Assembly (NCBI GenBank): GCA_964636855.1
Contig: CAZWVD010000001.1
Coordinates: forward strand, 1-39,997
Length of the DNA stretch: 39,997 nucleotides
Origin: an uncultured Gammaproteobacteria bacterium
GTDB lineage: Bacteria; Patescibacteriota; Patescibacteriia; UBA1558; S5-K13
Reading direction: 5' to 3'
Part shown: piece by piece, positions 12,106-33,486 of the stretch
Position numbering within the stretch: position 1 is the first letter of the stretch
Layout: every line of letters starts with the position of its first letter
Program-made: the position numbers and the translations under genes
Notes under the pieces: generated by a model
The model's input: the letters and a program-made list of their open reading frames with translations, nothing else
What the model was told of the DNA's origin: nothing
The model's database searches: none

Positions 12106-12115
12106 TTACTTAATT

Positions 12116-12405: not shown

Positions 12406-12609
12406 CTAATTAAATCCCATTCTCCTTGGCGACTTATAGCATTTCAATTCTCCGGGTCTAAACCAATAAAGAATGTTCTTATCGTCTACACATCCATACA
12501 ATATAGAATTATCTATATTAATCTGTATACTTGACACCATAAACTTAGAGCTTCTATCTAACACTGTACTTATGTATTCCCCTAGTTTAAATTGGTTATT
12601 TACAAACAT
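12406..12609 (-). CDS. hypothetical protein (67 aa)
   Basis: ORF at the end of the minus block. Its start overlaps the methyltransferase stop. Confidence 0.5.
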   Translation of the reverse strand: MFVNNQFKLGEYISTVLDRSSKFMVSSIQINIDNSILYGCVDDKNILYWFRPGELKCYKSPRRMGFN

Positions 12610-14178: not shown

Positions 14179-14361
14179 TTACTTATTTTTTCTACCGTTA
14201 TTATCGAACTCTAATACAGGCTCTTCATATATTGCTGGCGGTACAAATAATGTTCTCATCTTAAACTCTGCTAACTTTCCGTCGTTCCATTGAGTTATTG
14301 GTCTAATATACCCTACAATGCGAGAAAATATCTCGCAACGGGTTCGTTTACTGTTCTCCAT
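14179..14361 (-). CDS. NrdD C-terminal (glycyl-radical loop)-like mini-protein
   Basis: SRIVGYIRPITQWNDGKLAEFKMR resembles the class III RNR C-terminus (R-V-x-G-Y-L....N-x-G-K..E...R). Confidence 0.5.
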   Translation of the reverse strand: MENSKRTRCEIFSRIVGYIRPITQWNDGKLAEFKMRTLFVPPAIYEEPVLEFDNNGRKNK

Positions 14362-17893: not shown

Positions 17894-18033
17894 TTAGTTA
17901 TAAATAATAATTTAATCAACCCATAGTACTACTAATCAACAAATATGTCAATAGATTCCATACAAATAATTTTGATTTATGTACTTGACTTATTTTGATT
18001 AGTATGATAATAGATATTATATATTATACTAAT

Positions 18034-18061
18034 GAGACAGAGATCTCGCAATCTCTGTCTC
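18034..18061. promoter_or_regulatory. perfect 11-bp palindrome hairpin in the divergent control region
   Basis: gagacagagat-ctcgca-atctctgtctc read directly. Lies between the divergently transcribed blocks. Confidence 0.5.
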
Positions 18062-18133
18062 AATTGAGCTAATTATATCATATTATTAGAAATTGTCAAT
18101 AGTTGTTTGTAATATTTTTAGATGAAATGATTA

Positions 18134-18162
18134 TTGACTTTGTTTGGTAAATAACCTATACT
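18134..18162 (+). promoter_or_regulatory. sigma70-type promoter TTGACT-17 nt-TATACT
   Basis: Spacer counted by hand. The -10 element ends 19 nt before the ATG at 18182. Confidence 0.5.
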
Positions 18163-18181
18163 TTTGTTTAGTTAAATTTTA

Positions 18182-18445
18182 ATGACTATCTGTATGGAAT
18201 TATCTGTAGAGCAATTAGAAGACAAGAGTATTTTCTTGACGTTACGTTTAGATATAAAAGACATAGAGGAATGTCCAATATCTGGTGAGGAGAAGAAACT
18301 TGCAGAGCAATTAACGGCCTCTGAAGGGGTTGGGAATAGAATGGCGGGATATGCGATTATTTGTAAAGTAATAGAAAATTCGCAATTAAAAGCGAAGAAG
18401 AAATCTAAAAACAAAATAGAGATTCCTTCATCTATAATACTTTAA
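18182..18445 (+). CDS. hypothetical early protein (87 aa)
   Basis: First ORF after the promoter. Preferred over the antisense 18172-18414 ORF on strand context. Confidence 0.5.
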   Translation: MTICMELSVEQLEDKSIFLTLRLDIKDIEECPISGEEKKLAEQLTASEGVGNRMAGYAIICKVIENSQLKAKKKSKNKIEIPSSIIL

Positions 18446-18464
18446 TTGTTAAGAATTTATTAAA

Positions 18465-19766
18465 ATGGTGGACGCTCAGATTGAGAGGTCTGTTATTTCT
18501 GCAGCAATATCAGATCCTAAAATTATGTATGAAGCCGTGTTATCTTTAAAGCCAGAGTATCTGTCTGATGGGAATGCAAGGACAACGTGGGAATACATAC
18601 AGCCTATAGTAAGAGGTGGCGGTACGGTAGATTGGTTAGATATGAGTTCTAGCGAAAAACTAATGTATTTAGAAGATCCGATTACAAAGAAAGATCTGAT
18701 TGAAGGGGTTGATTATAGTAGCAAATTAGAGTCTATAGTTCAAGACGGAAAGGCATACGAATTATACTCCGTGCTTATTGACCAGACCGTAGATATAAAT
18801 GGAGCTAACTTACAACAGAAATTATCTAACATACAAGAAGCAATATCCAAAGCATATGTAGGAGATGACGATTCTGACAATGTTGATAATCTACTTACAC
18901 TATGGGGAGATTTACATAATCAATTTTCCGAGAACGGTAAGTTGGCCGTGTTTGGTATAAAATCAATAGATTCTGTAGTTGGAGGAATTGCACCTGGATG
19001 GGTGTGTACTGTAGTATCTGCGCCCGGGGTAGGAAAGTCTGCATTGGCAATACAATCGTTTTTAGAATCAATGAAGCTTGGAGTATCATCGGTATTGATC
19101 TCTACGGAAATGTCAAGAGAAGAAAACTTGGCTAGAATGATTGCAAGGGAGTCTGGAGTTGATACAACCAGTTGTATAACGGGGAGATTCTCTGGTCCAG
19201 ACGATGAACGTAAAGCGAAAGAAACTGCTGCTAAAATAGTTGAACTATTAAAATCTACTAAATCTAGAATATATGATAAATATATAAATATAAATGATAT
19301 TGTATGGACATGTAAGTTATGTAAAATGAAGTTAGGTACAAAATATTTTATCATTGACCACATGCATGAAATACAACACGATAAATCTGCCTCTGAATAT
19401 GAAAGGTTAACCTATATAGCAAATGAAATAAAAGTATTGGCAAAGAATGAGAAACTTGCGATAATGTTGCTAGGACAAGTATCTGTATCTTCTAAATCAA
19501 TGAAGGATAGCGACAATATAGATGCTAAAGGTACTGGTGCAGTGAAGGAAAAGGCAACTATGTTTGTTAGGCTTAGAAGAAATACATTAGACCCGCAGGA
19601 CAAGGAATACATGACATTCTCGCTTATAAAAAATAGGTTTGGCTCTACTATGGAACAACCAGTTAAGATAAGCCTTAGGACCGGAAACCTTACTGAGACC
19701 GCATACAGAGTTCCAGAACCAGAAGAGCACTTGGATAGATATAGAAATACTTTTAATGGAATGTAA
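18465..19766 (+). CDS. dnaB: DnaB-like replicative helicase
   Basis: GIKSIDSVVGGIAPGWVCTVVSAPGVGKSALAIQ (Walker A), FIIDHMHE (Walker B-like). Size is 433 aa. Confidence 0.8.
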   Translation: MVDAQIERSVISAAISDPKIMYEAVLSLKPEYLSDGNARTTWEYIQPIVRGGGTVDWLDMSSSEKLMYLEDPITKKDLIEGVDYSSKLESIVQDGKAYELYSVLIDQTVDINGANLQQKLSNIQEAISKAYVGDDDSDNVDNLLTLWGDLHNQFSENGKLAVFGIKSIDSVVGGIAPGWVCTVVSAPGVGKSALAIQSFLESMKLGVSSVLISTEMSREENLARMIARESGVDTTSCITGRFSGPDDERKAKETAAKIVELLKSTKSRIYDKYININDIVWTCKLCKMKLGTKYFIIDHMHEIQHDKSASEYERLTYIANEIKVLAKNEKLAIMLLGQVSVSSKSMKDSDNIDAKGTGAVKEKATMFVRLRRNTLDPQDKEYMTFSLIKNRFGSTMEQPVKISLRTGNLTETAYRVPEPEEHLDRYRNTFNGM

Positions 19767-19768
19767 AC

Positions 19769-20338
19769 ATGGTAGAAAAGGAATGGTATAAAAACGAAGA
19801 CGGTACAATAAACAAAGAGCAGATATCTGTATTGCTTAATGGGTTAAATAGTAATCTAAGGGAATTTATGCTTCAAAGAAATAAACTGGTTAATAAATTT
19901 AATATGGAAAAACGGCTTTCTACAAATCCTGTTAAGAAAGACTTGATTGGCATAGAATTTGGTGCGTATTCTGATAAAGATGGCATAGGTTGGCTTAACA
20001 ATAGAATTGAATCAATCAGAAAAGATATTAAGTTCTTGACTAAAGAAGTAGTTAGTCCAAATAGAATAGATAGAATAGATTTTAACGCACTAAAATGTGT
20101 AGACCCAGAACCAATATTACAATCATTTAACATCCAATTTAAGCGGGGTCATAACTTACTAATGATTAATTGTCCGTTTCATAATGAAAAGACTGCATCA
20201 TGTGCAGTTTATAGCGGAAATAGAAACGGATTTTATTGTTTTGGATGTGGGGCGAGTGGAGATATAATAACATTCGTATCAAAGATAACCGGAAAAAATG
20301 CAGTAGACTCCGCAAAATACATAAAACAGTTGACATAG
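19769..20338 (+). CDS. primase-type CHC2 zinc-finger protein (no TOPRIM domain)
   Basis: CPFHNEKTASCAVY...FYCFGCGASGDIITF near the C-terminus. Only 189 aa. Confidence 0.7.
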   Translation: MVEKEWYKNEDGTINKEQISVLLNGLNSNLREFMLQRNKLVNKFNMEKRLSTNPVKKDLIGIEFGAYSDKDGIGWLNNRIESIRKDIKFLTKEVVSPNRIDRIDFNALKCVDPEPILQSFNIQFKRGHNLLMINCPFHNEKTASCAVYSGNRNGFYCFGCGASGDIITFVSKITGKNAVDSAKYIKQLT

Positions 20339-20388
20339 TGTATTGTAATTGATATATTAAATCTAATAAGTTATTATACATAGTATAT

Positions 20389-22236
20389 ATGCCTAGAACA
20401 TTAAGATCAATGGCTCATCCGATTACAACATGTGAATGGGAACCGTTCGCTATCAATATGGAAGCACTGTCTTCGCTAACTAGAACCAGTTTAGACCTTG
20501 AAGATAATTTTATTGGAACAGCTGAAACACTTATTAATCAATATCGCGGATATAGCAAATCTGAATCAGAAATTAACCGTGTCAAAAATGAAAGTAAAAG
20601 AAGGTGTATAGATGCCAAGGGTATAATAGACTTTGCTTATTCAAAAATTAACGAGTCTACGTCAATTTGTTTTAAGATTTCAGATGCTATTTACCAAGGA
20701 AATAGATTGTATATAAATATAACATCCAATAATGCCGAACTTAAAAATATGGCAATTGATTTAGTCCAATCATATTACGCTGGTGTAGTTATAAAATGGG
20801 GAGATAGAATAATCAGCAATGCTGATTATGAGTTAAGTTCTGCGATTGGAAATCAGATAGTATCACGGGATAATAACTTCTTTAACTTGAGAATTAGAAT
20901 AATTCCAAGTCTAAATATGAAAGTAATTAAAAATTATCTAGAAAAACTATATAATAATTGTAATCGTGAATATTTAAATGTATGTGGGGAATGTAAGGCA
21001 AAGTTTATGTCTAATAATAATGTAAGGTCAATTGATAATGATTTACCAATTTGCAATCAATGTTTGTCTAGAATGGACAGGGTTCTTACTAGTGACATGA
21101 AATTAGCCGTTGTTTCAAATATCAGAAAAGCTTATAAGAAGATAGGGCTCAAAGATGTAGTATTTAATGGATGTATAATACCTGCTACGTCTGCTGCATC
21201 AGATGCGCTTCCATATACGTGTAAAAGATGTAACATAAAATGTGATTATTTACATACGGACGGATGTTGTTCGGATTGTAATAATAGTGAATGGAGAAGA
21301 ACAATGCATAATATAGATAATGTTACTGGACCAATAGAATTAGATAGTGTTTTAGATAATGATTTTCTGTATGGCTTCGAAGTAGAGATGGAATCAAATG
21401 GAAGAGTATCATTTAATAAAAAGAATTTGGATATTATAAATAACCTGTGTTCGATTGAGCATGACGGAAGTTTAAGTAACGGAATAGAAATTACTACTCC
21501 CCCTATTACAGGAAAAAATGGAGAGGATTTATTAAACGGTGTATATTCTGACTTGCGTGGATTAGGATTTATACCTAAAAAAACGTGTGGTGCACATGTT
21601 CATATATCATATCCTAAACTTACTGAGGAGTTATATCCAAGACTGTATTTTACACTTAAAAATATAGAAAATCTTATATTTGGATTAGTTCCTTCTCACA
21701 GAAAGAAAAATAGATATTCGTATAAATTAGACTTGAATGATAAAAGCAAAAACTTAGAAATATTAGACCAAAAGTCGTTTGACAAGATGTATTACAGTAG
21801 AGATGCGATTTCCGATCCGGAAATAGATAGAATAAAAGGATACAGAAGGCCATCTTGTAGGTATTACTGGGCTAATTTCCACTCATTATATTATAGGGGA
21901 ACGTTCGAAAATAGATTATTAGAAGCTGATTCAACTGCGGAAACTTCTATTTTATGGGCAAGGCTTAATAGTGATATTATTAAATGGGTATGTAGTGATA
22001 AATTTAGCAAAGACAAAATTATATCGGTATGTAAAGATGACAATCTTGATAGCCTGATTAAGCTACTAGAAATAATCGGAAATAACAATATGGATTTCTG
22101 GGTAAAGAGATTTAAAGAATATTGCGGTAAAACTTGCAATGAAAGCAATAGAGAACACCCCGTAAGTATGAATAACGGGCGTTTGACAGCCGCAGATAAT
22201 GGAGAATTGGTGTGGTACGTTAATCCGTGGATATAA
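20389..22236 (+). CDS. amidoligase (GS-like COOH-NH2 ligase, Amidoligase_2-type) with N-terminal extension and two zinc ribbons
   Basis: YGFEVEME, IEHDGSLSNGIEITTPPITG, CGAHVHISY, YYRGTFENRL. CGEC-x19-CNQC and CKRC-x12-CSDC. Confidence 0.7.
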   Translation: MPRTLRSMAHPITTCEWEPFAINMEALSSLTRTSLDLEDNFIGTAETLINQYRGYSKSESEINRVKNESKRRCIDAKGIIDFAYSKINESTSICFKISDAIYQGNRLYINITSNNAELKNMAIDLVQSYYAGVVIKWGDRIISNADYELSSAIGNQIVSRDNNFFNLRIRIIPSLNMKVIKNYLEKLYNNCNREYLNVCGECKAKFMSNNNVRSIDNDLPICNQCLSRMDRVLTSDMKLAVVSNIRKAYKKIGLKDVVFNGCIIPATSAASDALPYTCKRCNIKCDYLHTDGCCSDCNNSEWRRTMHNIDNVTGPIELDSVLDNDFLYGFEVEMESNGRVSFNKKNLDIINNLCSIEHDGSLSNGIEITTPPITGKNGEDLLNGVYSDLRGLGFIPKKTCGAHVHISYPKLTEELYPRLYFTLKNIENLIFGLVPSHRKKNRYSYKLDLNDKSKNLEILDQKSFDKMYYSRDAISDPEIDRIKGYRRPSCRYYWANFHSLYYRGTFENRLLEADSTAETSILWARLNSDIIKWVCSDKFSKDKIISVCKDDNLDSLIKLLEIIGNNNMDFWVKRFKEYCGKTCNESNREHPVSMNNGRLTAADNGELVWYVNPWI

Positions 22237-22272
22237 ATTAATATATAAATATTAAACAAGAAAGGAATAAAT

Positions 22273-23328
22273 ATGTGTGGAATATGTGGATTTATAACTG
22301 CCAATCCTAGCGTGGAAAACTCTAGGGTATTCAGATACTTGTTAGAAGGAAACTCTGCAAGGGGAACCGACAGTTTTGGAATAGCCAGTCTAGATAATGA
22401 TGGCGAGGTTAATATAATAAAACACCTAGGTTCTTCAAAAAACTGTACTGAAGCAGACTTTGATTATGCTAATACTGCAAAAATATGTATAGGGCATACT
22501 AGGTTAGCAACCCATGGTGCGGTTACAGAAGACAATGCCCATCCTATTAGGTTTAATAACATTATAGGGGTGCACAATGGAGTTATTCAAAACTATTTAG
22601 ATTTAATGCCGGACGCAGAAGTAGACAGTAGTTCTATATTTTATTTATTAGATAAAAATAACGGGGACGCAGAATGTCTGAAAAAGGTTTCTGGTAGTGT
22701 TGCAACTGCATGGATTGATATATGTAATAATTCTCTATCTTTAATAAGAAACTCTAACCCTATTAAGGCGTTTGTTAGTTTTAGAAGCGGAACTATTTTC
22801 TTCTCTAGTCTGGAATTTGATATTTTGGAATGGGAGTGGGCTAGCGGAGGACTTACAGATATGCTAGAAATTTCTATTCCAAGCGATGAACTAATTACAT
22901 TTAGCATGGATAAGGTATTAAGTATTTCTAGGCAAAAGATAAAGCTTGGTTCTAATGTAAAGTCCGAGATGTCTCTTTCTAAGATTTTCAATTCTTCTAA
23001 GAATTTTTCTAAGGTAGAAACTATAAAGCCAATTGGTAGCCTTAAAAAGATGGGTTGGTCTAGAAGAGCTATAAAGGCAGATAAGTGCGGTTATTGTGGA
23101 AATATAATGAAGGAAGAAAGATTCTATATCCCAACGGTTACTACATTACTATGTAAACAATGTATGCTTAAAAAATCTATAGAAGTACAAGTTTCAATTA
23201 ACGATATTTGCAAAGTAGGGGGGTCGAAGAAGGGTTTTATTTATCCCCTATCCGATACCGATTTTGCTTTGTTAAGTAATTATATGTATCAAAATTTTTT
23301 AGACGAAGCACAAATGAATTATTTGTAG
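22273..23328 (+). CDS. class-II (Ntn) glutamine amidotransferase domain protein with C-terminal zinc ribbon
   Basis: MCGICGF (Cys after Met1), HTRLATHG, HNGVIQN, EVDSSSIF. CGYC-x18-CKQC. Confidence 0.8.
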   Translation: MCGICGFITANPSVENSRVFRYLLEGNSARGTDSFGIASLDNDGEVNIIKHLGSSKNCTEADFDYANTAKICIGHTRLATHGAVTEDNAHPIRFNNIIGVHNGVIQNYLDLMPDAEVDSSSIFYLLDKNNGDAECLKKVSGSVATAWIDICNNSLSLIRNSNPIKAFVSFRSGTIFFSSLEFDILEWEWASGGLTDMLEISIPSDELITFSMDKVLSISRQKIKLGSNVKSEMSLSKIFNSSKNFSKVETIKPIGSLKKMGWSRRAIKADKCGYCGNIMKEERFYIPTVTTLLCKQCMLKKSIEVQVSINDICKVGGSKKGFIYPLSDTDFALLSNYMYQNFLDEAQMNYL

Positions 23329-23333
23329 GTATT

Positions 23334-23387
23334 CCCCTTGTACGGCGTACTTGCTTCCCCACATAGAGCAAGTGCGTCGTTTGGGGG
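23334..23387 (+). terminator. long GC-rich imperfect hairpin just after the GATase-1 stop (terminator or structured RNA)
   Basis: 14-bp stem 23342-23355/23367-23380 with two G-U pairs that form only on the + strand, flanked by CCCC/GGGGG. Confidence 0.45.
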
Positions 23388-23636
23388 TTACAGAGCTAGT
23401 TCCATATTATCCTATAGTATTTCTCTATAAGTTCAATATTATATACACAGACGTGTTTTCGACTTATAGTTATCTCACTATTGATAGCATTTTAATAGCA
23501 CCCATGCAACGCTAGAGGATATATTTTACATATCGGACCTATAGTTTTGAACGACAATAAGTTTTACTATAGCTATTTGACCTATTACAGTTCGAAGAGT
23601 AGATTATAAATATCTAAATTTTAATAAGTTTCTTAT

Positions 23637-25139
23637 ATGTGGTTAAATACATATATTAGCAAGCAAGAAAACCCAAAAATCATTGAAAGATTATTTGATG
23701 ATTACGAGTATAATAACAATGCTGAAGCGTATGTGTTAAAGGAGTGGAATAATATTTATAATCTGCGATATGATTCCGTAGATACGTCGCAGATTATGGA
23801 AGTTTCACATCCAAGAAACGGAGATCTAGAAATAATATTTAATTTTTCATACTCTACTAACCCCTTACATAAAATAGTATATAGAAATGTTCCCAGAGAA
23901 TTTTCTACATTAATAAAAGATAGATTTTTGAGAAGAGTAGCAGGCACACGCAAGTGTAAATGTGGAAGAGTAGTCGACCATATATTATCACGCGATTTTA
24001 AATCTGAAACCATTTGTTATCACTGCTATTGCGAAAAAATAAATATAGAACCAAGTCAATTAGTAAATTGTAATTATTGCAATAGAATTTGTGAGCAATC
24101 ACATTGTACTAACGGATTATGTGAGGAATGCTCTAGTAAATATGGCGTATGTTCAAACTGTGGTAGAACCGTTGTAAGAAGCACCCTTCAAGAACGCGGT
24201 GGAAAACTACTTTGCGAGTCGTGCCGATATGTTTCGCTCGGTACTATAATGTCGTCAAATCCTAATGATGACGACGATTTCCCGCCAGTAATTGGCAATG
24301 TAAAAGGATTGTTTACAGACAATAATTATACATATGGTTTTGAGATTGAAAGGGAGCAGACTAGAAAACTTACAACTGACGACGCCGATGCTATGAAAAC
24401 TATTAAGGACTTCACATATTTCACATATGATGGAAGCTTAAGAAATGGGATCGAAGTTGTTACGCTTCCATTTACAGGTCTTAAAGGTGAAAGACTATTC
24501 AAAAAAACATTTGACGTGTTAGATAGTTGCAAATTGAAAGGTGAGGAAACCTGTGGCTTACATTGCCATGTATCCCCAATTGATATAGATAAGCTTGAAA
24601 AATTAAAGACTGACAAGTATCTAAAAAGACTTTACAGACTCTGTTTTTTCATAGAAAGTTCACTAGCAGATATTACAGGGGATAGAATAAATAACAGGTA
24701 TTGTAAATCACTCAGAAAATTATTATCCCCTAAAAAAGCAAGGCAAGTTCCGTTTGATGTTCTATTCTATAATCAATTAGGCTCTTCTACAGATGTTAGA
24801 ACAATTAAATCGGAAATGGAAGCCCTGAAAGAAAATGCCAAATACGGCAAGGAGGAAGGACATCCATCGTGTAGATACCACTGGATCAATTTTCATTCAT
24901 TGTTCTACAGGGGAACGCTTGAAAATAGATTGTGTCCCGCCAACGTAACATATAAACAAGCCTTAGCATGGGCTAGGTTAACAAGCACCATTATAGATAT
25001 AGCACTACTTAGTGATTATAGATGGTATTCAAAAGCTAAACAGTTATCAGTATTTGAAGGCGTTGCCGATCCAGTAACTGTATTTTCAATAATGGGATTG
25101 CCTAAAAATACAACTAATCAACTACTTAGCATGAAATAA
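23637..25139 (+). CDS. amidoligase paralogue 2 with three N-terminal zinc ribbons
   Basis: YGFEIERE, FTYDGSLRNGIEVVTLPFTG, CGLHCHVSP, FYRGTLENRL. CKC-x17-CYHC, CNYC-x13-CEEC, CSNC-x17-CESC. Confidence 0.7.
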   Translation: MWLNTYISKQENPKIIERLFDDYEYNNNAEAYVLKEWNNIYNLRYDSVDTSQIMEVSHPRNGDLEIIFNFSYSTNPLHKIVYRNVPREFSTLIKDRFLRRVAGTRKCKCGRVVDHILSRDFKSETICYHCYCEKINIEPSQLVNCNYCNRICEQSHCTNGLCEECSSKYGVCSNCGRTVVRSTLQERGGKLLCESCRYVSLGTIMSSNPNDDDDFPPVIGNVKGLFTDNNYTYGFEIEREQTRKLTTDDADAMKTIKDFTYFTYDGSLRNGIEVVTLPFTGLKGERLFKKTFDVLDSCKLKGEETCGLHCHVSPIDIDKLEKLKTDKYLKRLYRLCFFIESSLADITGDRINNRYCKSLRKLLSPKKARQVPFDVLFYNQLGSSTDVRTIKSEMEALKENAKYGKEEGHPSCRYHWINFHSLFYRGTLENRLCPANVTYKQALAWARLTSTIIDIALLSDYRWYSKAKQLSVFEGVADPVTVFSIMGLPKNTTNQLLSMK

Positions 25140-25167
25140 ATAGTTTAAGTTATTATAAATAAACACT

Positions 25168-26268
25168 ATGTGCGGAATATCAGGCTTTATATCAAATAGC
25201 CCAAACAGAAAAAACAGGGAAATTTTATTAAACCTATTGTTTAATAATACTGACAGAGGTACGGACAGTTTCGGAGTTTATGGCAGACTTCAAAACGGCA
25301 ACGGATACTTACAGAAAAACAAGGGCAGTGCATTTGATATTAATTTTAATAGTATAAATAAGCTGGACCAAGCGACCCTATGTTTATCCCATACTAGGTT
25401 AGCAACTCATGGAGCTATCACCGCACAAAATGCCCACCCGCTAAAGTTTGGTGATATTATTGGCGTTCATAATGGAATGATAAAAAATGCAGTTGAACTG
25501 TATCCAGAATTAAAAGGCGACGTTGACTCAAAGGCTATATTTAAAACATTAAAAGACAATAACAACGAGTTTAATAGTCTTGAACGATTAGCGGGTTCGA
25601 TGGCTATCGCCTGGACCTTCAATAATAATAAACTTTACTTGGCTAAAAATTCTAACCCTTTAAGCGTAGTCGTTGTGCCAGAACTTAAAACGTTATTCTT
25701 TAGCAGTCAAGACACCCAACTTTATAGTGCTATTATATCTAAAGGCTACGACATTGAATTTGTGCCTATTAAAAAGAATATAGTATACACCATTTATTTT
25801 GACGGTTCAAACGCTTCAATTCCAAAAATTGAGGAGTTTAAACAAAACCTACCAGAGTATAAAAAGTTTGAATGGGATTATAAAAATGATGCATATAAAT
25901 TCTCTGACCATTACGCCAGCCCGCATTATTATAACAGCGAGTGGGAAAATTACGAAGAAACAAAAATACTTATACCTAAAAAGGTTGATATTGATATTTC
26001 AAACGTCAACGTTGAAGATACCGAGGATGAAGAATTTGAAGAATGTTCTTATAATTTCGTTGATGTAATGAGCAAAAAGAATCAATTATGCTTACACTGT
26101 AAGCATTGTGGAAGAAAATGCGAATTTGATAGGTTTTACAATCAAAAAGATGACGAGATTATATGCAGTGACTGTTACGACCTACTATTAGACTCGGGAT
26201 TTGATATGTTACAAATTGGAGTCGTAGACGATCAGAACAAAATGGTAACGTTTTGGAAGCAACTATAG
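25168..26268 (+). CDS. class-II glutamine amidotransferase paralogue 2 with C-terminal zinc ribbon
   Basis: MCGISGF, HTRLATHG, HNGMIKN, DVDSKAIF. CKHC-x18-CSDC. Confidence 0.8.
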   Translation: MCGISGFISNSPNRKNREILLNLLFNNTDRGTDSFGVYGRLQNGNGYLQKNKGSAFDINFNSINKLDQATLCLSHTRLATHGAITAQNAHPLKFGDIIGVHNGMIKNAVELYPELKGDVDSKAIFKTLKDNNNEFNSLERLAGSMAIAWTFNNNKLYLAKNSNPLSVVVVPELKTLFFSSQDTQLYSAIISKGYDIEFVPIKKNIVYTIYFDGSNASIPKIEEFKQNLPEYKKFEWDYKNDAYKFSDHYASPHYYNSEWENYEETKILIPKKVDIDISNVNVEDTEDEEFEECSYNFVDVMSKKNQLCLHCKHCGRKCEFDRFYNQKDDEIICSDCYDLLLDSGFDMLQIGVVDDQNKMVTFWKQL

Positions 26269-26295
26269 CTATTTAATTTTTAATTATATAAATAA

Positions 26296-26448
26296 ATGAA
26301 AAATAGGAATAAACACCCTACAGGAACTGTAGTCACAGTACCTAAAGTTTTGAACGACTCAAAACCGACTCAAAACAAAAAGCCCTTTAAAGGGAGCTTC
26401 AAGACCTTTAAGGAGCTAGCGCAATTCTTAAGCAAAACAATTATTTAA
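26296..26448 (+). CDS. small basic protein (50 aa), hand-called
   Basis: ATG 26296 to TAA 26446-26448, translated as MKNRNKHPTGTVVTVPKVLNDSKPTQNKKPFKGSFKTFKELAQFLSKTII. Below the ORF-track cutoff. Confidence 0.4.
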   Translation: MKNRNKHPTGTVVTVPKVLNDSKPTQNKKPFKGSFKTFKELAQFLSKTII

Positions 26449-26468
26449 TTATAAACAAATCAAATCAA

Positions 26469-26906
26469 ATGACACACGAAGAAGTAAAGCATATCGTTAC
26501 ATACAAATTAATTCCAGAAGCAAACTCACACTTTAAATATAATAGGGTTATCTTTAAACTTACAGACAGTACAGTATTTTCAAGTATTGACAGATCTAAT
26601 AATCAAAGTGATAGCGTACAGGAATTAATCATGTATGTATTAACAGATCTTAGCAAAGTGAATGAAACAGGTGAATGTATTGAAAATAATTTCAAAACAT
26701 TATCTATTTCGAAAATGAAGCCAACTAACCCGAACTGGGTTTTCAATGACAATGCCATTTCAGATCGTGGATATCAAAATCCTATACAATTAAAAGTAGT
26801 ACTTAACCTATCCGATCTTGAGGCTGGATCGCCAGTAGCTGCAGAGTCTAGCGAACAAGGATCAAGTGAAGATAATCAGTATCCTTTTGACGATAGCGAT
26901 TTTTAG
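26469..26906 (+). CDS. hypothetical protein with acidic C-terminal tail (...SSEDNQYPFDDSDF)
   Basis: 145-aa ORF followed by a strong hairpin. Confidence 0.65.
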   Translation: MTHEEVKHIVTYKLIPEANSHFKYNRVIFKLTDSTVFSSIDRSNNQSDSVQELIMYVLTDLSKVNETGECIENNFKTLSISKMKPTNPNWVFNDNAISDRGYQNPIQLKVVLNLSDLEAGSPVAAESSEQGSSEDNQYPFDDSDF

Positions 26907-26913
26907 TAGCTCA

Positions 26914-26940
26914 AATGCAGGGGCAGTCAGCCCCTGCATT
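26914..26940 (+). terminator. GC-rich hairpin terminator
   Basis: aatgcagggg-cagtcag-cccctgcatt, a 10-bp perfect stem 8 nt after the stop. Confidence 0.6.
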
Positions 26941-26967
26941 ATATAATCTATAAATATAATTAATCGC

Positions 26968-27207
26968 ATGACTAATAAAAAGATAACAATTGATTATAAG
27001 GCAGACCAAGCCCCTTCAATTAAAAAGGGTAAAATAGGAAGCAGATATATTATAACCGCTTATTCTGATGATGACAGGCACAAGATAAGGGCCGTATTCT
27101 ACGCCACAAATGCTAAACAAGCCGAGACAAGAGCCATTAACTGGATTCATCACTTACCGTATACTATAACTATAATTTCTAAACTCATAGCAGATGATCA
27201 AAATTAA
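26968..27207 (+). CDS. hypothetical protein (79 aa)
   Basis: ORF on the + strand after the terminator. Confidence 0.55.
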   Translation: MTNKKITIDYKADQAPSIKKGKIGSRYIITAYSDDDRHKIRAVFYATNAKQAETRAINWIHHLPYTITIISKLIADDQN

Positions 27208-27349
27208 ACTATTCAATAGACATTACAATTTGTACGACGAAAACGAGATCAATGTAATAATACCCGCCGAACAACCAAGCCAATTAATATTTGTTAGCAA
27301 CCAGGATCAAGGCACTAATAAACAACACAACAAAACAAAAAAGGACTAG
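27194..27349 (+). CDS. hypothetical small protein (51 aa), hand-called
   Basis: ATG 27194 to TAG 27347-27349. Overlaps the upstream stop and ends inside the bidirectional terminator. Confidence 0.35.
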   Translation: MIKIKLFNRHYNLYDENEINVIIPAEQPSQLIFVSNQDQGTNKQHNKTKKD

Positions 27350-27363
27350 TGTTTACTAGTCCT
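27342..27363. terminator. bidirectional rho-independent-type terminator
   Basis: aggactagt-gttt-actagtcct (9-bp stem) with an A-tract upstream and a T-rich tract downstream, between convergent genes. Confidence 0.6.
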
Positions 27364-27384
27364 TTATATTTATTACAATCTATT

Positions 27385-29293: not shown

Positions 29294-29360
29294 TGTAGTT
29301 GACAATGGGATTTGAACCCATAAGTCTCACGGTTTAACCAGTTAACCTATATCAACTACA
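29294..29360 (-). pseudogene. tRNA-like element lacking an anticodon arm (three-way junction)
   Basis: 11-bp closing stem, D-like hairpin GGTT-AACTGGTTA-AACC and T-arm ATGGG-TTCAAAT-CCCAT. Only 8 nt lie between the D-like and T hairpins. Confidence 0.4.
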
Positions 29361-30123: not shown

Positions 30124-30276
30124 TTAAACGTGTTTATAAATCTTGGTTAGATTAGGTACCTTCTCAGGAGTTATATTTGTATTCTTTTCGCATTTCCTAC
30201 ACATTATAGTGTATTTACCGTTATATATCTTTCCGATAATCAGATAATCTTCTTCACCGCATAGTTCACACTTCAT
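30124..30276 (-). CDS. mini zinc-ribbon protein (50 aa), hand-called
   Basis: MKCELCGEEDYLIIGKIYNGKYTIMCRKCEKN..., i.e. CxxC-x19-CxxC. Confidence 0.55.
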   Translation of the reverse strand: MKCELCGEEDYLIIGKIYNGKYTIMCRKCEKNTNITPEKVPNLTKIYKHV

Positions 30277-30418
30277 TTTCACTTACTCTTTTTAATTTAT
30301 TAAAGCACTTATCACATACGGTAAGTTCTAATTTTCCTACCCTTATAGAACTTTTATATGATACTACTGTTTTTCCACAGTATTGACACTTAAACTCTAC
30401 TCTACCGCTTATATCCAT
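30266..30418 (-). CDS. mini zinc-ribbon protein (50 aa), hand-called
   Basis: MDISGRVEFKCQYCGKTVVSYKSSIRVGKLELTVCDKCFNKL..., i.e. CxxC-x20-CxxC. Its stop overlaps the next start by 11 nt. Confidence 0.55.
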   Translation of the reverse strand: MDISGRVEFKCQYCGKTVVSYKSSIRVGKLELTVCDKCFNKLKRVSENEV

Positions 30419-30422
30419 AAAG

Positions 30423-30608
30423 TTATTCATGCTCATTCTCTAACAAATTTATTTTATCGCTTAGATCTGTACTTGTCATACCAATTTGTTCTACTATGTT
30501 TATTGCCGATTCTAACGATATAGAACCGTCAATTACTAACTCCGCTATAAACTTTAATTTGATAGCTAATACTTCTTGTTCGCATTCTGGATTCATATAT
30601 TTACACAT
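30423..30608 (-). CDS. hypothetical acidic protein (61 aa, or 57 aa from the ATG at 30596)
   Basis: ORF directly downstream of the ATP-grasp gene. Confidence 0.55.
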   Translation of the reverse strand: MCKYMNPECEQEVLAIKLKFIAELVIDGSISLESAINIVEQIGMTSTDLSDKINLLENEHE

Positions 30609-31431
30609 TCATATAAATTACATTAAACGAAATAGGATGCATTCCATCCCATATAATACTGGAATCTTCATACAGATCAGAATCTTCCCACATATCTTCT
30701 TCGATTGCAATATTAAACGCACTGGCATATTTATGCGCTGTATATCCAGAAACTTTAGGAGCAGTATTTACTTCACATATTACAAACCCAAACTGATTTG
30801 ACATAATATCTACAGCACCAAAATCCAGTCCTAAAGAGGATACCGCATCAACCGCACTCTTTGCCATGTTAAGATTTATACTATTCCAATTTATGAGTTT
30901 AAAATTGAACCCAGTAGACTTATTCCATACCATCTGATTTTTATCTCCGCCCAGTTTTTCCTGTGCAAGGAGAACCTTGTTTCCCATAACATGAAACCGA
31001 TACTCTCTTTGTTTACTAAATAGATATGTAAAATCTGTACAGCCATGTATTTTGGCATTTTCTACATCAAGCATATTTTTACAAACAAAAAAATGTTTTC
31101 CACCGTAGTGTTTGTCTGGTCTACCTATAATAGTTCTGTTAATCATGTTATTAAAGTCTACGGTTTTTAGCGTAGGAACTCCGTTTTGTTCAAATAACTT
31201 TCTAGCCTTTGGCTTATTAGATGCTATCGCAATAGAATCCGTAGGATTAAATTCGGAATCACTAGGCGTAACCTGGGTTGTACATCCCCAATTAATTACA
31301 TTTCTAGGTTGCTTAAATCTAGATGGGGTTAAAACTCCTCTTTTAGAGTATATTACTTTTGCCTCCAATCCTTCTGCGTGAAGCTCCCTGATCGTCTCTT
31401 CACTGCATTTTTTTGCAACAATTGCATCCAT
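30601..31431 (-). CDS. ATP-grasp ligase (RimK-like)
   Basis: NKPKARKLFEQNGVPT, IGRPDKHYGGKHF, EYRFHVMGNKV and LGLDFGAVDIM...FVICEVNTAPKVSG follow the ATP-grasp layout. Confidence 0.65.
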   Translation of the reverse strand: MDAIVAKKCSEETIRELHAEGLEAKVIYSKRGVLTPSRFKQPRNVINWGCTTQVTPSDSEFNPTDSIAIASNKPKARKLFEQNGVPTLKTVDFNNMINRTIIGRPDKHYGGKHFFVCKNMLDVENAKIHGCTDFTYLFSKQREYRFHVMGNKVLLAQEKLGGDKNQMVWNKSTGFNFKLINWNSINLNMAKSAVDAVSSLGLDFGAVDIMSNQFGFVICEVNTAPKVSGYTAHKYASAFNIAIEEDMWEDSDLYEDSSIIWDGMHPISFNVIYMNV

Positions 31432-31500: not shown

Positions 31501-32115
31501 ATGGGAAAAAAGAGATTCTTTAAGGTACAGGAAGAAGACCGTGGAGAAATTAATGGAACAGTTGACAATTTATTAGACAATCAGTCGGAACTTAAAAGTT
31601 CTGCAGACAGATTAATGATAATAAGTCCAGAAGAAAGACGTAAGATTTTAACTAACTCTCACTGGTCTACACGTGGAAGACTGGTAGAACAAATGGTAGA
31701 AAATGCAATGCTGTCTGGATTCTATGATATTGATAGTATATTCGATTGGCTGGGAGGTTCTAAAGGAGTAAGAAGAGACTCTGTAGAGGTTGCATATAAA
31801 AAAGTTATAGACAAATGGTTAGAAGAAAGTAAGCAACCGGATTCTATGACCAATGTTGAGAGAACTAGGCTTGTTAAAACTGCTTGGAAACTTGTTAGAG
31901 AATGTCAGTCTAAAGCTAACGAGGCAAAAGAATTAAAGGACTGGGTAGCAGTTAAAAGATTGGAACTAGATACACAAGCAAGAATTGCCAAGCTTACATT
32001 CGTTGAAAAGATGATAGACCAAGGAAACGCACCTCTGTCAATTAATCTATTTGGTAGTAATACTCCAGATAATGTAGAACCGATAACTTTTGAAGCAGAG
32101 ATAACAAAGCAATAA
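31501..32115 (+). CDS. terS: putative terminase small subunit
   Basis: Called from position only: immediately upstream of TerL with a stop/start overlap (TAATG). 204 aa. Confidence 0.45.
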   Translation: MGKKRFFKVQEEDRGEINGTVDNLLDNQSELKSSADRLMIISPEERRKILTNSHWSTRGRLVEQMVENAMLSGFYDIDSIFDWLGGSKGVRRDSVEVAYKKVIDKWLEESKQPDSMTNVERTRLVKTAWKLVRECQSKANEAKELKDWVAVKRLELDTQARIAKLTFVEKMIDQGNAPLSINLFGSNTPDNVEPITFEAEITKQ

Positions 32116-33458
32116 TGGATGTTTATTTATTTGAAACCAAACAACCTGACGGTAGTATAACTAGAGCTCCACATGCGGGACAGAAACCCATAATGGAAGA
32201 CAATACTAGATTTAAGGTAGTAGTTTGTGGTAGGCGTTTTGGTAAAACATTAATGTCTATTGTAACGCTTATTGAGAAGGCATCGTCTGGTCCAAACAAG
32301 TTGGTTTGGTATATCGCACCAACCTATAGACAGGCTAAAATGATTGCATGGAGACTTCTAATGAGTAGAATAAGATTGTTTCCAGAGAAGTTCCAGCTTC
32401 AATGCAAGATTAACGAGTCTGCACTTTCTATTATGTTACCAAACGGTAGCTTTATAGAACTAAAAGGTGTTGACAATCCAGACTCACTTAGAGGACAGGG
32501 TGTAGATTACATGGTACTCGACGAATATGCAGACGATAACTATAGTAGAATACCTGTTTGGCAGGAAATTTTAAGACCCGCATTGTCAGATAAAATGGGA
32601 GGCGCAATATTCATATCAACGCCAAAGGGTTATAATCATTTATATGATTTGTTTGAATATGCAGACTCTAAAAAGGATGAGCAATGGAAGGCTTGGAGAA
32701 TGCCAACGTCTAGTAATCCGTACATTAGTAGAAAAGAATTATTGGACGCAAGAAAAGAGCTTGGAGAGGATGTATTTATACAAGAATACGAAGCACAGTT
32801 TACTAAGAAGTCTGGACTTATATACAAAGAATTTAATAGAGATATTCATGTCATAGATCCATTAATTCCAGATCAAATATCTGCACAGTGGTATATGGAA
32901 GTCGGAGTAGACTTTGGTGCGTCACACCCTACCGCCGGAATATTTGTACTGTTTAGTCATATAGATGATACCGCATATGTAGTTGACGAATATTATCAGG
33001 GGGAAAGCATGATTGAAGATAATGCTGCGGCTATGTTCGCAATAGAAAACAAATGGATGAAAAGACCAAATGTTAGATGGGGAGACAGTGCTGGGAAACA
33101 GGAGATACTTGAGTACGGGAGCAGAAAGAATAGGTACTTCCTTAGCCCTACAGTTAAGGGTGCGGGTAGCGTTGAAGTTGGAATTGACAAAGTTAAGAGT
33201 AGACTTAGGGATGATGTATTGACCAGAAAGCCTAAACTATACATATGTAGAAACTGCGTAAATCTAATAAAAGAATTTGAAAATTACAGATGGAGACAAA
33301 GCGAAGACGAAAACAAGAAAGCGGCAGACAGACCGGTTAAGGTTTACGATGATGCCATGGATGCACTACGATATGTTATATCCCACCACACTGTCAAGAC
33401 GGGAGTAACTAAATTACCTATGAGTAAACATAAGAGGAATCCTCTTACTGGATACTAA
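32115..33458 (+). CDS. terL: terminase large subunit
   Basis: Walker A VVCGRRFGKT, Walker B YMVLDEYAD, nuclease-domain VGVDFG and DDAMDALRY. Confidence 0.85.
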   Translation: MDVYLFETKQPDGSITRAPHAGQKPIMEDNTRFKVVVCGRRFGKTLMSIVTLIEKASSGPNKLVWYIAPTYRQAKMIAWRLLMSRIRLFPEKFQLQCKINESALSIMLPNGSFIELKGVDNPDSLRGQGVDYMVLDEYADDNYSRIPVWQEILRPALSDKMGGAIFISTPKGYNHLYDLFEYADSKKDEQWKAWRMPTSSNPYISRKELLDARKELGEDVFIQEYEAQFTKKSGLIYKEFNRDIHVIDPLIPDQISAQWYMEVGVDFGASHPTAGIFVLFSHIDDTAYVVDEYYQGESMIEDNAAAMFAIENKWMKRPNVRWGDSAGKQEILEYGSRKNRYFLSPTVKGAGSVEVGIDKVKSRLRDDVLTRKPKLYICRNCVNLIKEFENYRWRQSEDENKKAADRPVKVYDDAMDALRYVISHHTVKTGVTKLPMSKHKRNPLTGY

Positions 33459-33486
33459 ATATATAAATTTTTATACATAAACAGAC

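Follow-up and report, generated by a model that had tools for sequence, protein, structure and literature searches.

The amidoligase cassette of phages has been named in papers on LUZ24-like, phiEco32-like, Pseudoalteromonas and OM43 phages, and it is annotated in Kuravirus, Bruynoghevirus, Zobellviridae, Pseudoalteromonas and OM43 phages. Later papers trace it to Iyer, Abhiman, Burroughs & Aravind (2009, Mol Biosyst 5:1636), the study that the preliminary description of this locus had correctly named for the link between ligase and amidase families, and earlier authors viewed it as cell-wall or peptide chemistry. In the phiEco32/LUZ24-type cassette, an Amidoligase_2 ligase adjoins a class-II Ntn glutamine amidotransferase (GAT), and fuller cassettes carry further gamma-glutamyl enzymes (GGCT/GGACT and Peptidase_C26). 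In line with the preliminary description, no experimentally determined substrate for the cassette or the family was found in the searchable literature.

The window, which is the whole stretch of 39,997 nucleotides that was analysed, contains two diverged copies of the phage unit consisting of an Amidoligase_2 ligase and a stand-alone class-II Ntn amidase, LigA-GatA (pair A) and LigB-GatB (pair B) (Table 1). This doubled block is a stripped-down variant of the phiEco32/LUZ24-type cassette and not a new system. It shares with that cassette the ligase-GAT adjacency, a RimK-like ATP-grasp within the same genome, primase/helicase neighbours with an early or middle gene context, and a structural module related to SU10 (SU10_adaptor). 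In contrast, the pair is present twice in tandem, COOH-NH2_lig (PF14395), GGCT and Peptidase_C26 were not found in the window, and the ATP-grasp gene lies on the opposite strand, 4.3 kb off. The ligases also have long N-terminal extensions bearing zinc-ribbon arrays, and the GATs, 351 and 366 aa long against 486-562 aa, are short and terminate in a zinc ribbon. The ATP-grasp protein matches the NCBIfam RimK-family alpha-L-glutamate ligases (E 2.5e-9) and is homologous to the cassette ATP-grasp of the phages Paul (E 7e-11) and L001 (E 4e-13); it represents the canonical cassette's third component.

Table 1. Features of the doubled amidoligase locus and its surroundings.
Feature	Position (nt)	Residues	Strand	Evidence
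DnaB-family replicative helicase, upstream, same rightward gene block	18465..19766		+	PF03796 DnaB_C, E 1e-25
CHC2 primase zinc finger protein, 189 aa	19769..20338	finger 122-185	+	PF01807, E 1.8e-15; PHROG primase families
Sigma-70-like promoter match, TTGACA-17-TATATT with TG	20330..20358		+	11/12 positions
LigA, 615 aa	20389..22236		+	PF12224 Amidoligase_2, 44.5 bits; phrog_2443
LigA unassigned N-terminal region		1-190	+	
LigA two CxxC..CxxC zinc-ribbon-like motifs	20983-21063, 21220-21279	199-225, 278-297	+	Cys positions
LigA Amidoligase_2 catalytic domain	21355-22029	about 323-547	+	PF12224
GatA, 351 aa	22273..23328		+	GATase_6, 51.5 bits
GatA class-II Ntn glutaminase-type domain		2-225	+	
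GatA low-confidence linker		228-268	+	
GatA small C-terminal zinc-ribbon domain, CGYC..CKQC	23086-23163	272-297	+	
Very stable hairpin in the 308-nt spacer separating the two pairs	23329..23391		+	MFE -35.1 kcal/mol, z -5.7
Weak promoter-like site, after spacer hairpin	23577-23605		+	promoter scan
LigB, 500 aa	23637..25139		+	PF12224 Amidoligase_2, 52.4 bits
LigB Cys-rich zinc-ribbon array	23955-24224	107-196	+	
LigB Amidoligase_2 catalytic domain	24318-25052	about 228-472	+	
GatB, 366 aa, class-II Ntn domain and C-terminal zinc ribbon	25168..26268		+	GATase_6, 42.7 bits
GatB C-terminal zinc ribbon	26089-26175	308-336	+	Cys positions
145-aa protein ending ...YPFDDSDF, SSB/gp2.5-like acidic tail	26469..26906		+	sequence
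Bidirectional terminator-like hairpin, 11-bp stem	27340..27365		both	
RimK-family ATP-grasp ligase	30601..31431		-	phrog_2599, E 1.5e-30
Strong promoter match ahead of ATP-grasp, first gene of convergent leftward block	31492-31464		-	

The four open reading frames of the preliminary description were confirmed, together with all of the ligase and GATase motifs quoted for them, and profile searches agreed with both proposed families (cut-offs of 22 bits for PF12224 and 27 bits for GATase_6). The ligase motifs in LigA and LigB, respectively, are YGFEVE and YGFEIE, DGSLSNGIEITTPPITG and DGSLRNGIEVVTLPFTG, CGAHVHIS and CGLHCHVS, and YRGTFENRL and YRGTLENRL; LigA keeps the family-invariant E-x-E, DG, E, CGxHxH, R, N and E-x-R residues. 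The AF2 model of LigB (core pLDDT 80-95) has glutamine synthetases as its best PDB fold matches, although these are weak (E 4e-3, TM 0.26-0.31), and in BFVD it hits 44 models of phage 'amidoligase' proteins (E<=1e-3). All four proteins bear zinc-ribbon modules, and the zinc arrays show a weak resemblance (E 6e-4) to LIM domains, which are protein-binding modules.

Both amidases have the MCGI start, HTRLATHG and VDS motifs, with HNGVIQN in GatA and HNGMIKN in GatB. Foldseek matched the GatA model (pLDDT about 90 across residues 1-180) to the glutaminase domain of GlmS (E 1.6e-14, TM 0.71 to 1xff) and to structures of EgtC (E 3e-11, TM 0.67). As modelled, GatA has the GlmS/PurF/EgtC fold without a synthase domain, followed by the linker and zinc ribbon only. 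GatB could be aligned residue by residue to GlmS 1xff, with equivalents of Cys1, R26, R73, T76, N98 and G99, while its D123 equivalent, beyond the end of that alignment, is predicted from the VDS motif. The equivalents of Cys1, R26, R73, T76, N98/G99 and D123 are invariant across 24 homologues, which bears out the full Ntn catalytic set noted earlier. In sequence comparisons, the amidases score 73 bits with the true glutaminase domain of GlmS but just 20-24 bits with EgtC, a far more distant match.

Between the two ligases, identity is 35% across 249 aa (E 4e-32), and between the two amidases it is 44% across 181 aa (E 1e-46); by this measure LigA/LigB and GatA/GatB are true paralogues, with chance resemblance ruled out, and as clearly diverged as had been described. 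On the catalytic cores, the two ligases (130/200 NJ bootstraps) and the two amidases (89/200) are sisters with moderate support, which fits duplication of the pair as a single unit; each ligase-amidase pair appears to have been duplicated as one. The non-catalytic parts of the ligases can no longer be aligned, and the two specificities suggested earlier are therefore plausible on sequence grounds. In a survey of single versus double modules, GatA-like genes were present in 345 of 50,697 phage records, at 347 GAT places, indicating that doubling is rare among sequenced phages. Three metagenomic phage loci that likewise have several ligases show that it is not confined to this phage.

The promoter match just 5' of LigA is a consensus match only. 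The hairpin between the pairs was matched by none of 200 shuffles in folding, and the spacer, with this hairpin and then the weak promoter-like site, possibly forms a transcription-unit boundary. The hairpin at 27340..27365 marks the shared end of two gene blocks, a rightward one (about 18.1-27.3 kb) and a leftward one that converges on it.

For each pair, our tentative first choice is a gamma-glutamyl on/off unit (writer/eraser or protect/deprotect), in which the ligase gamma-glutamylates an amine with ATP and the Ntn partner strips the gamma-glutamyl group. The ligase would be a glutamine-synthetase/glutamate-cysteine-ligase (GS/GCL)-type enzyme that phosphorylates a carboxylate with ATP-Mg and joins it to an amine; L-glutamate with its gamma-carboxylate is the likeliest substrate for this step, and the product would then be a gamma-glutamyl amide. 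The conserved Arg and Asp of the cognate Ntn partner would hold the free alpha-amino and alpha-carboxylate groups of the glutamyl moiety, and Cys1 would cleave the gamma-amide. Small amines, peptides and protein lysines are all candidate acceptors, and selection among them would fall to the unalignable N-terminal regions and LIM-like zinc-finger arrays. Within the GS/GCL superfamily, the ligases that have been characterised activate the gamma-carboxylate of glutamate, and to our knowledge EgtC, a gamma-glutamyl amidohydrolase, is the sole stand-alone class-II GAT-like protein to have been characterised. Family membership, intact catalytic sets, the invariant pocket residues, the absence of a synthase domain in GatA, ligase-amidase adjacency and the sister relationships of the copies all argue for the gamma-glutamyl unit, as do GGCT/GGACT and Peptidase_C26 in fuller cassettes and the RimK alpha-L-glutamate-ligase family of the ATP-grasp. 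Of 37 other loci surveyed, 21 have the ligase gene next to an amidase gene, as do L038, L039, L041, L042 and Marvin (gp105/gp106). In Firmicutes phages (Bacillus phage PBC5, Evtepia phage) the ligase neighbour is a gamma-glutamyl cyclotransferase instead of a GAT-II, as also seen in PMC11318856. This enzyme cuts gamma-glutamyl amides and cannot supply ammonia, so the exchange of one partner for the other speaks for cleavage of gamma-glutamyl bonds. Against the gamma-glutamyl unit, making and then breaking one bond is futile without an intervening enzyme or event, and no enzyme acting between the two steps was identified in the window. The closeness of the amidases to GlmS, the lack of GGCT and Peptidase_C26, which would strengthen the case, the weak ligase match to glutamine synthetase, the moderate bootstraps and a whole family without known substrate or product also count against it.

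The same logic is known from EgtA/EgtC, PuuA/PuuD and BtrJ/BtrG, where a gamma-glutamyl group is installed and then removed. EgtA/EgtC likewise combine a GS/GCL-superfamily carboxylate-amine ligase with a stand-alone class-II Ntn amidohydrolase without synthase domain. However, the amidases are not orthologues of EgtC (EgtC equivalog cut-off 219 bits), the ligases belong to Amidoligase_2 and not to the GCS2/EgtA family, equivalents of the intermediate-step enzymes EgtB and EgtD are absent, and the phage setting and zinc-ribbon modules differ. PafA and Dop, a writer and an eraser with genes side by side, are GS/GCL-related carboxylate-amine ligases; a terminal glutamate gamma-carboxylate is phosphorylated and joined to lysine. 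Neither sequence nor fold comparison gave a match to PafA or Dop, the proposed eraser is an Ntn-fold protein and not a PafA homologue, and no Pup-like tag was identified. A small ORF ending in Glu, downstream of the ATP-grasp gene, is a lead only.

The main rival, possible but in our view doubtful, is a two-subunit glutamine-dependent amidotransferase, in which the Ntn subunit would hydrolyse free glutamine and the ammonia would pass to the ligase to make a carboxamide via an acyl phosphate, the two pairs amidating two different carboxylates. The complete, invariant GlmS-type glutamine pocket and the scores to GlmS fit this mechanism, the amidases have no synthase domain and so need a partner, and a strictly adjacent, often translationally coupled ligase duplicated together with its amidase would make the two-gene unit a complete enzyme. 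On the other hand, all characterised class-II amidotransferases that we know of have a fused synthase domain, so that a heteromeric enzyme would be the first of its kind; a search of 176 family members revealed no fusion of ligase and GAT. An apparent fusion in Marvin/Tesla was rejected as two separate genes. The cyclotransferase partner could not serve such an enzyme, and GGCT and Peptidase_C26 are left without a role. GatD is a class-I GATase. MurT/GatD, which amidate peptidoglycan iso-Glu, offer a split precedent encoded by two adjacent genes (PMC3267633), and a GAT-II domain is present on some CmoY homologues, predicted AsnB-like ligases acting on 5-carboxymethylcytosine (PMC12783734). These systems share ATP-dependent carboxylate activation coupled to an amine or glutamine-derived ammonia, but have Mur ligase and asparagine-synthetase PP-loop folds instead of the GS-like fold here.

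A cell-wall target, combinable with either chemistry, is improbable: ligases and amidase would make or alter gamma-glutamyl or amidated bonds in the stem peptides of peptidoglycan (e.g. D-iso-Glu, meso-DAP), for superinfection block or lysis tuning. Stem peptides have two carboxylates, amidated in some bacteria, which would fit two pairs, and the window encodes LysM and M23 proteins that bind or cut the cell wall. The same cassette has been interpreted this way (PMC5498523, PMC10580990, PMC11318856), later phage papers crediting Iyer et al. 2009, but the papers found offer no test and all rest on that one comparative-genomics study. In addition, the four proteins have no obvious signal peptide (by eye) or membrane segment and no Mur-ligase similarity, and their genes sit in the replication block, not the lysis block.

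The families, catalytic sets and literature of the preliminary description stood, whereas its target (phage DNA, tRNA or a replication protein, through amidation or amino-acid ligation on a nucleobase handle or the replisome) had gene position as its sole ground and is unlikely. The DnaB and CHC2 genes do lie directly upstream, but the 'primase' has a zinc finger only, with no Toprim domain detected in the window. Zinc-ribbon modules, the co-occurrence of Pfam amidoligase and amidotransferase domains with thymidine-hypermodification clusters on viral contigs, with putative function (PMC8989533), and ATP-dependent amide ligases acting on DNA 5-carboxymethylcytosine (PMC12783734) would favour such a target; the zinc arrays, however, are LIM-like, and CmoY is an asparagine-synthetase-type AMP-forming ligase of unlike fold. 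A DNA target finds no support within the window (40 of 43 kb): CmoA, 5-HMUDK, aGPT-Pplase, dUMP hydroxymethylase, TET/JBP and thymidine-hypermodification genes were not found, leaving no enzyme that installs a carboxyl or phosphorylated handle on DNA. The C5 methyltransferase was rejected as CmoX-like; it has GSPCQ and a motif X GNGV with the Asn kept and is HhaI-like (E 4e-40), so it departs from the CmoX signature. The 145-aa protein has no Pfam, PHROG or NCBIfam match and is, from its acidic tail, a possible SSB candidate; if so, replication genes flank the pairs on both sides. Primase/helicase genes also adjoin the cassette in very different phages (Kuravirus, Zobellviridae, several metagenomic phages), so this position is a conserved cassette feature, not special to this window, and may reflect merely early or middle gene timing. 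Since the cassette is known beside replication genes in many phages, the doubled locus is an uncommon form of something described long ago, and its two pairs, as gamma-glutamyl on/off units, would serve two amine acceptors or two positions.

The ligases LigA and LigB are each followed by a class-II glutamine amidotransferase of the Ntn type (GatA and GatB, respectively), forming two pairs, A and B, in tandem. The preliminary description of this DNA had placed the four reading frames correctly to the nucleotide, all on the forward strand, and each sequence motif it quoted is found in the window proteins. Its family assignments are borne out by profile searches against Pfam and PHROGs. The C-terminal halves of the ligases match Amidoligase_2 (PF12224; LigA 44.5 bits, LigB 52.4 bits; cut-off 22) and also phrog_2443, 'amidoligase', while NCBIfam gave no match for either. 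The N-terminal ~180 residues of the amidases match GATase_6 (GatA 51.5 bits, GatB 42.7 bits; cut-off 27); in addition, both match GATase_7, barely over its cut-off, and the GlmS-like phrog_4736.

Positions of the features discussed in the text, in the window and in related loci (L-numbers)
Sequence	Feature	Position	Strand	Remark
Window	C5 cytosine DNA methyltransferase	12600-13814	-	M.HhaI is best solved relative, E 4e-40
Window	NrdD-like ORF	14179-14361	-	60 aa
Window	DnaB-family helicase	18465-19766	+	
Window	'Primase': CHC2 zinc finger only, at C-terminus	19769-20338	+	189 aa
Window	Sigma-70-like promoter match just before LigA	20330-20358	+	11/12 positions
Window	LigA	20389-22236	+	615 aa
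Window	GatA	22273-23328	+	351 aa
Window	Hairpin in 308-nt spacer between pairs	23329-23391	+	-35.1 kcal/mol, z -5.7, 15-bp inner stem
Window	LigB	23637-25139	+	500 aa
Window	GatB	25168-26268	+	366 aa
Window	Protein with acidic tail	26469-26906	+	145 aa
Window	Bidirectional terminator-like hairpin, end of rightward block	27340-27365		
Window	Fourth tRNA-like element	29297-29356	-	60 nt, Rfam 42.8 bits
Window	Three small ORFs directly downstream of ATP-grasp gene	30124-30608	-	
Window	RimK-like ATP-grasp	30601-31431	-	phrog_2599 E 1.5e-30; NCBIfam RimK-family alpha-L-glutamate ligase
L010	RuvB gene beside cassette	11130-12119		
L038	RtcB RNA ligase gene by or within cassette	10817-12013		
L041	Peptidase_C26 gamma-glutamyl hydrolase gene by or within cassette	6251-6886		
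L045 (Mycobacterium phage Marvin)	gp105 and gp106	31627-33967		

The two pairs had been called diverged paralogues, and this is confirmed for both components: the catalytic domains of LigA and LigB share 35% identity (249 aa, E 4e-32), and the GATase domains of GatA and GatB share 44% (181 aa, E 1e-46). The N-terminal regions of the ligases (about 320 and 225 aa) align neither with each other nor with the other fetched sequences. In neighbour-joining trees built on the catalytic cores only, LigA and LigB cluster in 130 of 200 bootstraps and GatA and GatB in 89 of 200. These groupings, with their moderate support, are consistent with a pair that would have been duplicated long ago as one unit. 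The two diverged pairs and the unalignable ligase N-termini point to two acceptors, whichever chemistry is carried out, and the earlier proposal of two specificities is reasonable.

The survey of single versus double modules that had been proposed was run on loci seeded with the GAT alignment; LigB and the ligase alignments of two and of 25 sequences gave no loci. A tblastn search with the GatA domain found 347 places in 345 phage records, so that at most two sequenced phages can hold two copies. Among the 37 other loci surveyed, a ligase gene lies beside the GAT gene in 21, and more than one unit was found only in L010, which comes from a 157-kb contig and has the order GGACT, ligase, GAT, ..., GAT, x, ligase and with an adjoining RuvB gene. 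Two further loci carry several ligases: L040, in which two tandem Amidoligase_2 genes are followed by a GAT-like gene, and L042, which holds the closest GAT relative and has two ligases and one GAT. Two complete tandem pairs are a rare arrangement, and multiplication of the ligase recurs within the subfamily. Fusions of ligase and GAT, which would have spoken for physical coupling, are absent among 176 family members. A BFVD match from Mycobacterium phage Tesla, annotated 'Glutamine amidotransferase domain protein', was considered as such a fusion and rejected, as the corresponding parts are two separate genes in Marvin. In Marvin, gp105 is a weak match to Amidoligase_2 (E 1e-3, below cut-off), and gp106 encodes its GAT-II-like partner. 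The Tesla orthologue of gp105 resembles the LigB model in fold, and the name 'glutamine amidotransferase domain protein' under which gp105 is publicly annotated is misleading.

The ligase-GAT unit described here is a doubled version, with fewer parts, of a cassette known from phage annotations for more than ten years. According to phage papers that refer to their 2009 comparative genomics, Iyer and co-workers reportedly suggested a role in cell-wall or peptide modification or in secondary-metabolite synthesis. [quoted passage not shown] It has been described in genome papers on LUZ24-like phages (PMC3890496, PMC3517423), in Pseudoalteromonas phages, where conservation in phiEco32, 7-11, PA11, tf, LUZ24, PaP3, RIO-1 and CW02 was noted (PMC5498523), and in OM43 phages (PMC10580990).

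An Amidoligase_2 gene beside a GAT-II gene and near primase/helicase genes is found in the window and in L001, L004, L006 (Escherichia phage Paul), L007, L038 and L041. The Kuravirus Paul has the gene order COOH-NH2 ligase, x, Amidoligase_2, GAT, ..., ATP-grasp, ..., GGCT, ..., primase/helicase, and a Zobellviridae phage carries the same parts ahead of its primase/helicase. In the metagenomic loci L001, L038 and L041 a Toprim-DnaB gene lies directly downstream of the cassette, and in L004 DnaB follows the ligase-GAT pair by a few genes. The helicase/primase neighbourhood is thus a conserved property of the cassette, not a peculiarity of the window. The RtcB neighbour in L038 may point to a connection with RNA or tRNA.

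From the fuller cassette the window retains a RimK-like ATP-grasp, which has homologues in the cassette ATP-grasp enzymes of Paul (E 7e-11) and L001 (E 4e-13) and is not contiguous with the pairs. Matches to COOH-NH2_lig (PF14395), GGCT and Peptidase_C26 are absent among the window ORFs in Pfam and PHROGs. One of the three small ORFs by the ATP-grasp gene encodes 61 aa ending in ...LLENEHE, with a C-terminal Glu and no Pfam match, and the other two encode small proteins with a zinc ribbon, one of 56 aa (CQYCG..CDKC) and one of 52 aa (CELCG..CRKC). The LysX/LysW and RimK/S6 systems provide a precedent, a small zinc-ribbon carrier with a terminal Glu, and by this analogy the glutamate ligase could use the products of the small ORFs as carriers or substrates.

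At about 35% GC, the window is part of a phage genome and covers all but about 3 kb of a 43,221-bp contig. It has genes for terminase, portal and major capsid protein, and it also encodes an adaptor of the SU10 type, a LysM protein and an M23 peptidase. Rad52, a PD-(D/E)XK nuclease, a metallophosphoesterase and the C5 DNA methyltransferase belong to a block of recombination and repair genes that runs leftward. DnaB, the primase zinc-finger gene, both pairs and a few small genes lie in the rightward block, which extends from about 18.1 kb to about 27.3 kb; the pairs do lie directly after helicase and primase genes, as had been observed. Toprim, a primase catalytic domain and a DNA polymerase were not detected anywhere in the window. 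Related loci have a DnaB with a fused Toprim domain, and a small gene of its own for the zinc ribbon. The hairpin between the pairs lacks a T-run, which sets it apart from classical terminators, and it may serve in RNA processing or stability.

Three smaller features were also observed. The 145-aa protein downstream of GatB has no Pfam, PHROG or NCBIfam match and ends in ...NQYPFDDSDF; similar acidic tails with a terminal Phe are known from bacterial SSB and T7 gp2.5, and judged by this tail it may be the phage SSB. The 60-aa ORF matches NrdD, the anaerobic ribonucleotide reductase, at its extreme C-terminus only, in the region of the glycyl-radical motif (SRIVGYIRP...WNDGK; PF13597 E 5.6e-8, profile positions 531-562 of 562). 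Full-length NrdD is absent from the window, and the ORF may be either the remnant of a gene or a free-standing 'spare-part' glycyl-radical domain of the GrcA/YfiD kind. The fourth tRNA-like element adjoins the tRNA-Gln/Trp/Cys cluster and was not called by ARAGORN.

The phage has no close relative in the searched records. A megablast search of window positions 18000-27000 against 50,697 phage records gave zero matches, tblastn with TerL found no phage record above 35% identity, and tblastn with the ligases reached at best <=30% identity in phage records. A word-indexed homologue search with LigB returned LigB alone. In an exhaustive HMMER search of 1.84 billion cluster representatives (a 50%-identity library) with the ligase profile, 788 matches had E-values below 1e-10 and 4,593 below 1e-3, and those below 1e-30 were the two window ligases only. 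PADLOC gave no match.

In the ligases, 14 columns of the catalytic domain are invariant in 25 family members, including LigA and LigB: the two Glu of YGFE-x-E, DG, the Glu of GIE, C-G-x-H-x-H, Arg, Asn, E-x-R and Trp. The catalytic constellation E-x-E, DG(S), E, CG-x-H-x-H, R, N, E-x-R is also invariant in a 28-member set. In the AF2 model of LigB (mean pLDDT 69.5, core 80-95), the best PDB matches are glutamine synthetases (E 4e-3 to 3e-2, probability 0.87-0.93) with TM-scores of only 0.26-0.31, and plant glutamate-cysteine ligase (GCL) is matched at E 0.45. The low TM-scores make this weak but consistent support, at the level of fold, for a predicted glutamine-synthetase (GS)/GCL-like fold. 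The LigB model also matches 44 phage 'amidoligase' models in BFVD, with E-values down to 2.6e-11, and the top match is annotated 'LIM domain containing protein'. A PDB sequence search with the ligase profile gave no match for the catalytic domain and LIM-like zinc-finger matches to the N-terminal array only. A Toprim or primase domain hidden in the N-terminus of LigA was considered and found no support in Pfam or PHROGs. Literature searches found no characterised member of Amidoligase_2 and no experimental work on the function of the cassette.

All four window proteins carry CxxC..CxxC motifs outside the catalytic domain. Such motifs are common in the ligase relatives, with at least one in 126 of 176 and at least three in 80, and a C-terminal zinc ribbon is also present in the two closest GAT relatives. 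The zinc ribbons are a subfamily trait that extends beyond the window. The profile of the ligase zinc-ribbon region weakly matches LIM domains (E 6e-4, PDB sequence search), and LIM-like arrays lean weakly toward protein recognition.

Both amidases begin with MCGI, with the nucleophile Cys right behind Met1. C2, R30, H75-T76-R77, T80, N102-G103 and D118 are invariant in 24 homologues. The residue-by-residue alignment with GlmS (1xff) spans positions 1-113. Equivalents of GlmS Cys1, R26, R73, T76, N98/G99 and D123 are present, of which D118 is the putative counterpart of D123, read from the conserved VDS motif past the end of the alignment. These residues form the pocket for glutamine or for a gamma-glutamyl group whose alpha-amino group and alpha-carboxylate are free, and they do not separate a glutaminase from a gamma-glutamyl amidase. 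The GatA model (mean pLDDT 75.9; about 90 across residues 1-180) matches the GlmS glutaminase domain (E 1.6e-14, TM 0.71 to 1xff), PurF (E 1e-12) and EgtC (E 3e-11, TM 0.67), and the predicted fold is the Ntn alpha-beta-beta-alpha fold. Past residue 225, GatA consists of a low-confidence linker (residues 228-268) and a zinc-ribbon module of ~75 aa; the model contains no synthase domain, and no second Pfam domain was found.

Two chemistries can be considered for the pairs, and the one tentatively favoured, at somewhat less than even probability, is the addition and removal of gamma-glutamyl groups. A GS/GCL-type ligase would phosphorylate the gamma-carboxylate of glutamate and then join the activated glutamate to an amine, and the Ntn partner would later cleave the resulting gamma-amide. 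This chemistry is favoured because in Firmicutes phages a gamma-glutamyl cyclotransferase takes the place of GAT-II beside the ligase, and a cyclotransferase cuts gamma-glutamyl amides and cannot supply ammonia. It is also favoured because fuller cassettes hold extra gamma-glutamyl-specific enzymes (GGCT/GGACT and Peptidase_C26) and because the cassette ATP-grasp belongs to the alpha-L-glutamate ligase family. In addition, EgtC, a characterised stand-alone class-II GAT-like protein, is a gamma-glutamyl hydrolase. In GlmS, PurF, AsnB and GltS a synthase or acceptor domain is fused to the glutaminase domain, and to our knowledge the same is true of all characterised class-II amidotransferases, which likewise argues for gamma-glutamyl removal by a stand-alone protein.

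Against this, the pairs may be split amidotransferases, in which the Ntn protein would hydrolyze glutamine and pass ammonia to the ligase for amidation of an activated carboxylate; this is held to be somewhat less likely. In its favour, the window amidases are far nearer to GlmS than to EgtC, which they resemble only in fold and architecture: their scores with the EgtC equivalog TIGR03442 (NCBIfam), 19.6 and 24.0 bits, are well below the cut-off of 218.65. Also, the two genes are tightly coupled, and a two-gene unit would be a complete enzyme without a futile cycle. Under either chemistry the acceptor could be a protein lysine or a peptide, a small amine of the polyamine type, the stem peptides of peptidoglycan or a nucleic acid.

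A DNA, tRNA or replication-protein target, proposed earlier from the location of the genes, found no support beyond that location. A DNA target is made conceivable by two papers. Pfam amidoligase and amidotransferase domains are co-associated with thymidine-hypermodification clusters (Lee et al., PMC8989533). Yang et al. showed that the C5-methyltransferase homologue CmoX installs 5-carboxymethylcytosine, which the asparagine-synthetase-type CmoY amidates with glycine; a GAT-II domain is present in some CmoY homologues, and CmoX is recognized by an SPPC motif and an Arg replacing HhaI Asn304 (PMC12783734). CmoY is AsnB-type and AMP-forming, whereas the window ligases are predicted to be GS-like. 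The C5 methyltransferase of the window was considered as a CmoX that would give the DNA a carboxyl handle, and this was rejected on motif X and the SPPC motif: it has GGSPCQ and CGNGV, with the Asn retained. A long insertion lies between its motifs VIII and IX. 8YF3 is absent from its structure matches. Its motif X (GNGV) points to a conventional SAM-type methyltransferase, so that 5mC is probably present in the phage DNA at some motif. CmoA was not found in the window, and 5-HMUDK, aGPT-Pplase, dUMP hydroxymethylase and TET/JBP were found neither in the window nor in the ligase-GAT loci examined. Without the CmoX signature and handle enzymes, the DNA reading is left with the position of the genes.

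The Amidoligase_2 and Ntn-GAT unit is widespread in phages, yet biochemically uncharacterised. The window adds no evidence on the identity of the substrate, and the cassette itself was already known, the tandem doubling being a rare variant of it. As the pair is doubled and diverged while most accessory enzymes are missing, the arrangement suggests that the pair itself is the functional unit; it also suggests that specificity sits in the ligase N-terminal region and the zinc-ribbon modules. The doubled genome can therefore guide designs that compare cognate with cross pairs or swap domains. The substrate question is family-wide, and the cultured relatives phiEco32, SU10 and LUZ24 are easier to attack than the window phage. 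A slim chance is given to the full reading, in which the pairs would be the first heteromeric class-II glutamine amidotransferases or gamma-glutamyl writer/eraser pairs, directed by their LIM-like arrays to the replisome, phage DNA or tRNA, or a host protein. If true, such zinc-array-directed pairs would explain the persistence of the cassette by primase and helicase genes across unrelated phage families and would reveal a novel amidation or glutamylation of a macromolecule during phage infection.
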